Source: a virus (lineage: Duplodnaviria > Heunggongvirae > Uroviricota > Caudoviricetes). Taken from it: a DNA stretch of 47,837 nt. A program made the position numbers. Each line of letters opens with the position of its first letter. Positions within the stretch are counted from its first letter, which is position 1. Of the stretch, positions 24,001 to 27,000 are shown in pieces. The DNA lies in IMG/VR virus record IMGVR_UViG_2713896798_000007. One strand, 5' to 3'.

Positions 24001-27000
24001 AGTCAAAACAGTTGTTTAACACTCAGGCACCGTAATGATGCCTTTGTCATTTCTGCGCATCTCACGCGCATCTCACAACACAGAACCTTTCAGGATGACC
24101 CTTGAGGATACCGGTTTGGCTGTCGGTGCCTTTCTGTGGGCTGGATTCCTGTGAGACAAGGTTCATCACTAAAAGGAAATAACCGATGAATATGATGGCC
24201 GTGCCGTTTCACGGCAACTCTCTTTATGTAGTTAACCATAATGGCGAACCATACGTTCCCATGAAACCTGTCGTTGCGGGGATGGGGCTGGCCTGGCAAT
24301 CACAGTTGGCTAAGTTAAGACAGCGTTTTGCGTCAACTATAACGGAAATCGTTATGGTTGCTGAGGATGGGAAACAACGCAATATGGTGTCCATGCCACT
24401 TCGAAAACTTGCCGGCTGGCTACAAACCATTAATCCCAACAAAGTAAAACCCGAAATCCGCGATAAGGTCATCCGGTATCAGGAAGAGTGCGACGATGTT
24501 CTTTACGAGTACTGGACGAAGGGTTTTGTCGTTAATCCCCGTAAAATGAGCGTGATGGAAGAACTCAACCAGGCTTGTGCTGACATGAAACGGGATAAAA
24601 ACATTGCCAGTGTGTTTGCTACCGGGCTGAATGAGTGGAAACAGGTTAAAGCCGCGCATGTATCAAAAATCCGTACGCTGGTAAATGAAGCGAATATGCT
24701 GATTGATTTTGTCCTGGCTGATACAGGCAAAGGGAAAATAACAAAGGCGGATTGATGGGGTGGCTAATGATATCAGATAAACTCATAACGCTGGTGAAGA
24801 GCCTCTGTGTACTTGTCGGCATTTCATTTTTAGTCATGCTGGTTGCCATTTTCTTTTCCACCGCCTGGCGAGTCCTGACGTTATCGGGACTGGTGGGGTG
24901 AAAGAGAGATGAACCGTGTTCTGTGTGTGGTGATTATTGTCCTGGCGGTTGGCTGTGGTGCGCTGTGGCTGGCAACAAACCATTACCGTGACAACGCGCT
25001 CACCTACAAAGCGCAGCGTGATAAAAAAGCCAGAGAGCTGGAACAGGCGAATGCCACCATTACTGACATGCAGGTGCGCCAGCGCGATGTTGCTGCGCTC
25101 GATGCAAAATACTCAAGGGAATTAGCTGATGCGAGAGCTGAAAATGAAACTCTGCGTGCTGATGTTGCCGCTGGTCGTAAGCGCCTGCGGATCAACGCCA
25201 CCTGCTCCGGTACCGTGCGTGAAGCCACCGGCACCTCCGGCGTGGATAATGCAACCGGCCCCCGACTGGCAGACACCGCTGAACGGGATTATTTCATCCT
25301 CAGAGAACGGTTGATGACAATGCAGAAGCAGCTGGAAGGGGCACAGGACTATATCCGCACTCAGTGCCTGAACTAAGTTTTGCTGATGCGCCGTATCGTC
25401 ACCGTATTCCTGCATTAACAGAGACCGCAGCCCGACAGGGAGACTCCTCTGCGCGAGTGTGCGGGGATAATCAAAAACGATACACACCGGGGTTTACCGC
25501 GTTAACGGAGCGCGGCGTTGTCCCCTCATAGTCGCTGGTCCGGTGCGATGGTGGAAGAAACCGGACTACATTACAAATGATAACCATTATCATTTTGCGG
25601 GTCCTCCTGGTGGGGGGGGCCTGAACACGGGGCGGGCGGCGCGGAAAAAGGCGCATTTTTTGATTTTTATGGCACCATCACCACCAGTGTAAGTTATTGA
25701 TATATAGAAAAATAAAAATTTTTAGTGTCGAATCTGGTTGTTTTTTGTTCATCACTGGTGTGTGTTTACATAATTTTCAGGGGGAGTTATGGATCGTGAA
25801 TTAAAAAATCTGCATCTGAATATTTCCCAACTGGCCGCATTATCCGGTGCTCATCGACAGACTGTTGCGGCTCGGGTAAAAAACATAAGCCCAGCCGGTG
25901 GTCATGAGAGCAATCTCAAACTGTACCGACTGACAGATATCCTTGCCGAGCTGATGAAAGCTCCTCTGCCTGTAGATAACGAGGAAATGGATCCTCATGC
26001 GCGTAAAGCATGGTACCAGTCAGAACGTGACCGACTGAAATTTGAGCAGGAAACTGGTCAGCTTGTGCCAGTCAGTGATGTCAGGCGGTCCTTTTCTGTC
26101 GTGGTGAAAGCGATAGTTCAGGTACTGGAAACCTGGCCTGACCGGCTGGAGAGGGACAGGGGGTGGACCGCATCACAACTGAATGAAGTACAGATTGTGG
26201 TTGATGAGATCCGCGACACACTGGAAAAGGCAGTCATTGACTGTTGTGATGAGGCCGATATGTGAATCAGGTGAACGAGAGCCATAGCCGCGCATCCGAT
26301 ATCTGGCGCGAAGTGGCCTCGCTGTTTCGCCCACCCAGCCGGTTACCAGTAGCGGAAGCCATCAGGCGTTATATGCGGGTTCCACGGGGAGCCAATACTT
26401 CCGGTCCGTGGGAGTCATCGCTGACGCCCTATATGATTGACCCCATTAATACATTATCAGCCCGTGAATATGACGCGGTGGTGTTTGTGGGACCTGCGCG
26501 AACCGGGAAAACCGAAGGGCTGATTGATGGCTGGATTGTGTACGGCATCATCTGTGATCCGGCGGATATGCTGGTGGTGCAGATGACTGAGACGAAGGCG
26601 CGTGAGCATTCCAGAACGCGTCTTTCCAGGACGTTTCGCCACAGTCCGGAGGTCAGCAAGCGCCTCAGTCCTTCCCGTAATGACAACAACGTCCACGATA
26701 AAATGTTTCTTGACGGCTCCTTCCTGAAGATTGGCTGGCCGTCGATCACCGTCTTTTCCTCTTCGGATTACCGTCGTGTGGCGCTGACGGATTATGACCG
26801 TTTCCCTGAAAACGTGGACGGGGAAGGGGATGCCTTCACGCTGGCCTCAAAGCGTACCACCACCTTTATGTCCTCGGGGATGACCCTGGTCGAGAGTTCA
26901 CCGGGGCGGGATATCACCGATACCAAATGGCGTTGTGGTGGCGCACATGAGGCACCGCCAACAACGGGGATCCTGTCACTGTATAACCGGGGAGACCGCC

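Follow-up and report, generated by a model that had tools for sequence, protein, structure and literature searches.

This analysis concerns the segment that separates the endolysin gene R from the spanin gene Rz in the P21-type lysis cassette of a tailed phage (Duplodnaviria; Heunggongvirae; Uroviricota; Caudoviricetes; IMG/VR record IMGVR_UViG_2713896798_000007). The whole stretch analysed, 47,837 nucleotides (nt), is referred to as the window; positions are those of the window, and the segment and its flanking lysis genes are on its forward strand. Upstream the cassette is bounded by a gene for an S21-type (class II) pinholin at 23162–23377 (PF04971, 7e-33; phrog_9876/20, holin), followed at 23382–23915 by R, which encodes an R21-like GH24 lysozyme with a hydrophobic N-terminus (PF00959, 1.5e-24; phrog_7). 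Its downstream boundary is the i-spanin gene Rz at 24909–25376 (PF03245, 5e-50), in which the o-spanin gene Rz1 is embedded (25129–25314; PF06085, 1.7e-21). Between R and Rz come a spacer (23916–24024), a degenerate terminator-like hairpin made of an AGGCA/TGCCT stem and an interrupted T-run (24025–24054), a structured leader RNA identified by a covariance model, R1, and by covariation (24051–24191), the gene of a 189-amino-acid (aa) protein that we call AntN (24186–24755) and an open reading frame (ORF) for a 48-aa single-pass membrane peptide (24755–24901) placed directly 5′ of Rz. The 270 nt from the R stop to the AntN start are non-coding. The AntN stop and the start of the 48-aa ORF overlap in the sequence TGATG, and an alternative ATG for the latter is present at 24767.

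A preliminary description of the window had placed the 189-aa and 48-aa ORFs between endolysin and Rz, and ORF and Pfam checks showed its coordinates and sizes to be correct. It had also described the pair as inserted inside the lysis cassette, which is true in part. The empty site is represented by phage ASU11, where R stop and Rz start overlap, and relative to it the window carries an extra ~990 bp (23916–24905); however, the ORF pair is not a single insertion unit, as the 48-aa ORF is also found without AntN. The spacer, which aligns with that of four other loci (L005, L007, L096 and L097), is kept for ~110 nt after the R stop in every variant with a gene between R and Rz, whichever cargo follows. 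At its 5′ end it resembles the overlapping R stop and Rz start of the empty site, and similar sequence appears again just before Rz (24895–24915), a repeat that may hint at the origin of the insertion.

Is this arrangement new? The whole cassette is 98.7% identical to that of VT2-Sakai and VT1-Sakai and ~98% identical to those of 933W, Min27 and the PA phages, and the AntN gene is annotated ‘ant’ in the Shiga toxin (Stx) phages 933W, VT2-Sakai (VT2-Sap48), VT1-Sakai and Min27. The O104:H4 outbreak phage P13374 carries the same gene pair, with the 48-aa ORF annotated as ORF53. The segment 23916–24905 is present in 850 of 5426 complete Escherichia coli genomes, with a median of 3 copies, and in several enterohaemorrhagic E. 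coli (EHEC) genomes it is 100% identical throughout. RefSeq names the two products ‘phage antirepressor N-terminal domain-containing protein’ (WP_001056806.1) and ‘hypothetical protein’ (WP_000539792.1). By sequence comparison, then, the gene pair is a long-annotated, standard feature of Stx prophages that requires no new category. A functional study of the ‘ant’ gene between R and Rz was not found in the searchable literature.

AntN is composed of two domains. Pfam assigns residues 5–113 to P22_AR_N (PF10547, 1.4e-45) and residues 122–164 to ORF11CD3 (PF10549, 5.5e-6). The first is homologous to the N-terminus of the P22 antirepressor Ant: in BLASTP, AntN residues 1–126 match Ant residues 10–136 with 50% identity and nothing matches beyond, and the match to the PHROG Ant family, phrog_524, ends at profile position 210 of 317. 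P22 Ant is built of P22_AR_N and P22_AR_C, the latter (PF10548) at its residues 200–272, and Pfam detects no P22_AR_C in AntN. The second domain is that of Rha proteins, as P22 Rha and P13374 ORF55 consist of Phage_pRha and ORF11CD3 and match PF10549 with 1e-27 and 7e-24, respectively. No Pfam match to Phage_pRha (PF09669) was obtained for AntN, and an hhalign comparison of the AntN alignment with Rha cargo proteins gave a weak signal (E 0.005, probability 7%). In its architecture AntN thus reads as a Rha-like protein that has the Ant N-domain as its head.

The preliminary description had called the protein Ant/KilA-N-like. The P22_AR_N homology bears this out, and so does the predicted fold of the N-domain, which matches the Mbp1 APSES domain and the viral Bro-N, AntA-N and KilA-N models; in sequence, by contrast, the Pfam KilA-N, Bro-N and AntA profiles gave nothing at E≤0.1. 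The hhalign comparison with KilA-N cargo proteins was likewise negative (probability 0.2%). A search of PDB sequences with AntN returned no relative, Foldseek against PDB returned nothing below E 0.1, and neither PADLOC nor NCBIfam gave a match. A domain analysis devoid of any DNA-binding or antirepressor fold had been named in advance as speaking against the assignment; what we find instead supports a DNA-binding-type fold, and the N-domain probably binds nucleic acid, judging from the fold model.

More than 2500 homologues of AntN were found, at 60–92% identity across the Enterobacterales. The best 120 listed are from E. coli, Salmonella, Xenorhabdus, Photorhabdus, Proteus, Providencia, Serratia, Hamiltonella, Sodalis and Arsenophonus; they have the same two domains, and nearly all are 187–190 aa long. 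The ratio of nonsynonymous to synonymous substitution rates (dN/dS) is 0.12 for AntN and 0.08 for R. Because of this number of homologues, their constant length and domains and the low dN/dS, AntN represents a conserved family of ~188 aa and is neither a chance ORF nor a decayed Ant. Broken frames, of 39 aa or 32 aa and then a restart, are seen in Xenorhabdus lircayensis, an Arsenophonus endosymbiont and Serratia symbiotica; these copies, which retain a recognizable leader, are likely to belong to decaying prophages.

AntN usually stands between an endolysin and a spanin gene, an order shared by loci with at least four unrelated endolysin types (GH24, GH108, M15-like and a 133–139-aa type) and three spanin types (Rz/Rz1, DUF2570 with LysC, and a 60-aa lipoprotein) in five genera. 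Two Proteus loci have holin_3_1 and a 134–139-aa endolysin upstream and Rz/Rz1 downstream, two Serratia loci a GH24 lysozyme and a DUF2570 spanin with LysC, a Salmonella locus a GH108 endolysin and a 60-aa lipoprotein that is possibly a unimolecular spanin, and a Providencia locus an M15-like peptidase and a transmembrane protein with a lipoprotein. In a Photorhabdus locus, lysozyme and Rz both precede AntN, which thus stands after the spanin. The AntN stop overlaps or abuts the spanin start in the Serratia, Xenorhabdus and Proteus loci. Either a function in this position or repeated recombination at shared linker sequences could account for the recurring slot, and the comparison does not favour one over the other.

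The 48-aa ORF has a history of its own. Its product contains one strongly hydrophobic segment with a core at about residues 16–36 and a maximum 17-residue hydropathy of 3.04, and is probably a real small inner-membrane protein. It has no Pfam, NCBIfam or PADLOC match and no homology to described holins or antiholins; its one match is phrog_4906 (5e-30), a family of unassigned function. By tblastn it is found in 276 phage records at 63–100% identity, the names of which are almost all of E. coli or Shigella phages. AntN is absent beside it in three loci (L096–L098); in PhiR12_2_star and PhiR12_4 a 60-aa membrane ORF precedes it in place of AntN, and in phiSTEC1589 its neighbours are further short hydrophobic ORFs. 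The stretch between SDKL and the stop is always 42 codons long, free of insertions and deletions in five variants, and dN/dS is 0.24–0.47 for the more divergent pairs (dS 0.29–0.67), close pairs being uninformative at values near 1. The ORF is therefore a gene independent of AntN, under moderate purifying selection. A Stx2c phage fills the same R–Rz junction with another ORF, of 72 aa, whose hydrophobic segment is C-terminal. More generally, P21-type R–Rz junctions hold changing short hydrophobic ORFs, of 60 aa (C-terminal transmembrane segment), ~32 aa and 72 aa, beside or instead of AntN (L097 and L098, 1116–1444; L096, 1011–1572; L006, 1572–1790), to which no family could be assigned, and the 48-aa ORF is one of several such alternatives. 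Given its position, the peptide may modulate lysis or its timing, which is a guess.

The leader, unexpectedly, is shared with other genes. The 137 nt 5′ of the AntN start have counterparts of 85–93% identity in a Klebsiella phage and P22-like phages of Salmonella, and a weaker one of 73% identity in HK639; in all of these the genes that follow are unrelated to AntN. Such leaders precede Rha in SPN9CC, VSe13, HK639 and P22, KilA-N genes in MG40, ST64B (sb54) and a Klebsiella phage, and an HNH_3+AP2 gene in phage Dewey; with these other cargos the leader lies after Rz in the P22-like phages and after tail genes in the Klebsiella phage. R1, built from 16 leaders, scores the leader of the window at 150 bits (E 2e-29) and that of P22 rha at 72 bits. 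The conserved positions by themselves amount to about 26 bits, too few for a degenerate DNA pattern. An R1 match ending at the start codon was found in 21 fetched AntN loci, among them almost all of those with a whole-protein match and upstream sequence present, and R1 also matched at 80 of 80 Rha loci from IMG/VR; loci that match the N-domain of AntN alone gave no R1 match upstream. Rfam 15 produced no match at E≤1 in 22900–25900 and, at E≤10, chance-level hits to 24010–24200 (E 2.5–4, 11–14 bits against gathering scores of 41–57). An RNA motif upstream of rha or kilA was not found in the literature, and the leader is apparently undescribed.

Some genomes contain the leader twice, a few hundred to ~1300 nt apart, each copy with a different cargo gene. 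P13374 (L007) has leaders at 2452–2596 and 3816–3957, before AntN (ahead of Rz) and the Rha-type ORF55 (behind Rz), and Symbiopectobacterium (L030) has them at 1936–2085 and 2862–3006, before a 242-aa gene and then AntN. In P22 (L095) the leader spans 39504–39649 and the annotated rha start, 39575, falls within it, the model-aligned start being ~70 nt downstream; in HK639 (L011) the leader spans 1802–1939, the annotated start of HK639_73 is at 1898 and the model-aligned start is ~40 nt downstream. Since these annotated starts fall inside the structured leader, the annotated N-termini of P22 and HK639 Rha are probably too long.

What structure does the leader adopt? Its pairing consists of a short helix P0 (24055–24058/24066–24069), a long imperfect helix P1 with a lower part (24086–24093/24169–24176), in which an anti-Shine-Dalgarno CCUUU faces the AAAGG of the Shine-Dalgarno (SD) sequence, and an upper part (24094–24104/24157–24167), a hairpin P3 (24105–24131), and a helix P2 (24079–24084/24133–24138) that crosses P1 to form a pseudoknot. 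GGGC at 24138–24141 is invariant, the SD occupies 24172–24177 and the AUG is at 24186. In an alignment of 32 distinct rows (A7), 84.5% of cells are paired against 39–51% in slid controls, and 147 cells have changes on both sides of a pair against 52 in shuffled alignments, none of 500 shuffles reaching the observed value. An independent alignment of the Rha set (A10, also 32 distinct rows) gives 81.4% paired cells against 27–52%, 113 both-side-changed cells against 42 (again 0 of 500), and both-side change in 25 of 28 pairs. P1-lower also covaries, as in columns 55/146, where UA occurs 21 times, AU 8 times and CG and UG once each. P2 is not fitted by R1 and was checked separately, by comparing pairing of the strands of one leader with pairing across sequences. 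Of 26 distinct leaders, 25 form at least six contiguous pairs between their own strands, a run reached by 14% of the cross-sequence pairings, despite a highly variable sequence (CACAGA, CCAAGAA, CGAGAG, CAUCGA, CAUGAG, CACGAG, CCCGAG and others). Four helices, including the pseudoknot, are thus supported by compensatory changes. Folded as a single sequence, the leader has an unremarkable energy (z = −0.08); the case for the structure is one of covariation and not of stability.

Other explanations for the conservation were discarded. A small ORF at 24035–24154, entered as ‘hypothetical protein’ in some records, does not account for it: no frame is kept, insertions and deletions shift the frame, and a stop-free reading frame is seen in at most 7 of 31 leaders. 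A ribozyme like that of hepatitis delta virus has the same order of crossing helices, but the leader has no conserved C in the P3 loop to pair with the GG after P2, no visible P4 and no match to an Rfam ribozyme model. The core motifs of hammerhead ribozymes are absent.

Transcription of the segment can be read from its flanks. At the place of the degenerate hairpin, P22-like phages, HK639, Proteus and Serratia have a canonical GC-rich terminator, annotated as such in HK639; the degenerate stem and T-run of the window are consistent with transcription of Rz having to pass through. A scan for sigma-70 promoters in 22900–25900 found none against 3.2 expected, and the idea of a self-contained moron with its own promoter, gene and terminator was dropped on this result. 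With no sigma-70-like promoter found, AntN is most likely read from the Q-dependent late transcript, so that the protein would probably be made late, together with the lysis proteins, under Q antitermination.

Based on these observations, we propose a model for how the leader might act. Two folds would compete: an extended P1, with the anti-SD:SD pairing at its lower end, and an H-type pseudoknot that includes P2. The 5′ strand of P2 lies 1 nt upstream of P1, and its 3′ strand lies in the P1 loop near P3, abutting the invariant GGGC. Because of the 1-nt linker, P2 and P1-lower cannot coexist, and a full P1 of ~20 bp blocks the P2 partner. When P2 forms, the anti-SD strand of P1-lower would become a loop crossing P1-upper and the SD would be freed; extended P1 would accordingly hold translation of the downstream gene off and the pseudoknot would turn it on. 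Computation puts nested folds with either pairing at near-equal energies (−36 to −39.6 against −38.8 kcal/mol), and since both pairings covary, both appear to be selected. P2 could form while the 3′ strand of P1 has yet to be transcribed, which would allow a kinetic ‘on, then off’ behaviour. The trigger might be the kinetics of co-transcriptional folding, cleavage of P1 by RNase III, a host factor or a small ligand. The leader is probably a translational control element, with gating as its likely mode.

We further suggest, tentatively and at slightly less than an even chance, that these leaders constitute an undescribed class of cis-regulatory RNA, a ‘Rha leader’, in which a bistable pseudoknot/anti-SD switch gates changeable and potentially toxic accessory genes of the late operon in response to a signal. 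Its range would be the temperate phages of Enterobacterales, P22 included, its cargo Rha, KilA-N, P22AR-N and HNH-AP2 proteins, and its signal perhaps integration host factor (IHF), RNase III, a small ligand or transcription-coupled folding. The leader might instead be no switch at all, and serve as an RNase III processing site or as a DNA-level recombination linker that marks module boundaries. P1, an imperfect duplex of ~20 bp, has the usual shape of an RNase III substrate, and the leader coincides exactly with the junctions at which one cargo gene is swapped for another. Nevertheless, a linker acting at the DNA level predicts neither compensatory changes in four helices nor a covarying pseudoknot strand, and RNase III processing fits the structure and would itself be one means of exerting this translational control, hence is only partly a rival. 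We consider this alternative unlikely.

What, then, is the role of AntN? The reading we prefer, with somewhat better than even confidence, is that the segment joins a switch-like structured leader, a Rha-type accessory gene and a separate gene for a 48-aa membrane peptide. AntN would be a non-essential regulator or effector of the Rha type that acts on DNA, rather than an antirepressor of the P22 type. A rival possibility is that AntN is a toxic or defence effector resembling Rha and KilA proteins, involved in abortive infection, superinfection exclusion or counter-defence and silenced by the leader until needed. AntN has its leader and its ORF11CD3 tail in common with Rha, and work attributed to Henthorn and Friedman in 1995 is said to have found that Rha inhibits phage growth in IHF-deficient hosts. 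In addition, the exchange of cargo behind a constant leader is reminiscent of moron or defence hot spots. As neither PADLOC nor NCBIfam recognizes AntN and no partner gene is consistently linked to it, we regard this reading as improbable.

The preliminary description had suggested that a late-expressed protein of this kind could be an anti-immunity factor against co-resident prophages. In full, such an antirepressor would bind the repressors of heteroimmune prophages, whether co-resident or incoming. Homology to the Ant N-domain is clear, EHEC genomes hold a median of 3 copies of the AntN module among many lambdoid prophages, and trans-acting antirepressors are known in Salmonella (PMC3121763). 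Beyond the N-domain, however, the proposal finds no support. AntN lacks P22_AR_C, which is the portion of Ant conserved in the ‘ant’ of the Stx phage Phi24B; that gene has experimental support, stands before qut outside the lysis cassette and is similar to P22 Ant over its C-terminal 104 residues (PMC3064807), and it is a different gene from AntN. The Stx1a prophage of E. coli E2865 has an identical AntN module and, in the nin region before Q, separate Ant and KilAC-domain genes (L099, 3223–4754); this is the position of Phi24B ant, and AntN is therefore not the only gene of that phage to bear the name. Control of the arc/mnt/sar or LexA type is absent at AntN, its leader also precedes genes that are not antirepressors (Rha, KilA-N and HNH-AP2), and a protein made at lysis would come too late to induce neighbouring prophages in any cell but a dying one. 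An antirepressor role thus seems distinctly improbable to us.

No greater credence attaches to the idea that AntN, with or without the 48-aa peptide, is a component of the lysis cassette that adjusts when lysis occurs or ties it to the state of DNA or packaging: it would explain why AntN keeps the endolysin–spanin slot with unrelated partners, the overlapping or abutting spanin starts count for it and in phage P2 a gene for lysis timing, lysA, separates endolysin from spanin genes, but AntN is predicted to be soluble with a DNA-binding-type fold, follows the spanin in Photorhabdus, shares its leader with genes placed after Rz or tail genes, and is dispensed with in cassettes such as that of ASU11.

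Several features of the window prophage outside the segment deserve mention. An IS66-family element at 20304–22950, with an HTH_Tnp_1 ORF (20304–20981) and an IS66 DDE transposase (21348–22919), sits within the late transcript between a SASA/DUF1737 esterase gene (17830–19776) and the holin gene. In the best-matching E. coli genomes without the element, the flanks are covered in two pieces at 99.9% identity. The insertion could affect late gene expression. The prophage has no stx genes; their usual place, between the DUF1133/Q-like gene (15614–16288) and the esterase gene, is occupied by an ORF6N-domain gene (16559–16975) with no match to the leader model upstream of it. A Fic/Doc toxin gene lies at 13892–14386.

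What are the implications of these findings? The label ‘antirepressor’ should be used with caution for AntN, because half of Ant and the whole of its control circuit are missing. Hundreds of EHEC genomes contain about three copies of a putatively late protein with a DNA-binding-type fold, encoded on the same transcript as the functions that release Shiga toxin. One structured leader, common to AntN, P22 Rha and several KilA-N proteins, links orphan families into one regulatory class, and its candidacy as a new translational RNA switch, in phages that are among the best studied, is well supported. If the ‘Rha leader’ proposal is right, the switch could explain the 30-year-old observation of harm by Rha in hosts deficient in IHF.

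How do AntN and its leader compare with known systems? Relative to the Stx-phage ‘ant’ locus, the window holds another copy of the identical gene pair in the identical place with nothing different about it, except that this copy is in a prophage without stx and with an IS66-family insertion upstream of the holin gene. P22 Ant resembles AntN in its N-terminal P22_AR_N, over ~126 residues, but is 300 residues long and ends in P22_AR_C, where AntN has ORF11CD3. Ant is expressed from its own promoter under Arc and Mnt, is subject to the antisense RNA sar and is encoded between tail genes; AntN has none of these and, unlike the immI layout of P22, lies in the late lysis cassette between R and Rz, with no LexA- or immI-type control region seen upstream of its gene. 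The Rha proteins of P22 (orf201) and phi80 are closer in organization, with a C-terminal ORF11CD3, a length of ~190–200 aa, a place in the late operon beside the lysis genes and the same structured leader upstream. They differ in their N-domain, which is Phage_pRha instead of P22_AR_N, and in order, as rha follows the spanin genes and AntN precedes them. AntN also resembles the KilA-N/Bro-N/APSES superfamily of DNA-binding domains, reportedly treated by Iyer, Koonin and Aravind in 2002, in its predicted fold and in that KilA-N genes stand behind the same leader in other phages, although no sequence-profile match connects it to these domains. For the leader, the nearest parallels are pseudoknots that sequester the SD, such as the preQ1-II and SAM-II riboswitches and the rpsO and T4 gene 32 operators. 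Like them, it lies 5′ of a gene and combines an H-type pseudoknot with an embedded hairpin, an anti-SD:SD helix and alternative pairings. It differs from them in that neither sequence nor covariance models relate it to an Rfam 15 family and, unlike those examples, it precedes a cargo whose N-domain family varies from phage to phage, all of the proteins carrying domains of DNA-binding or nuclease type.

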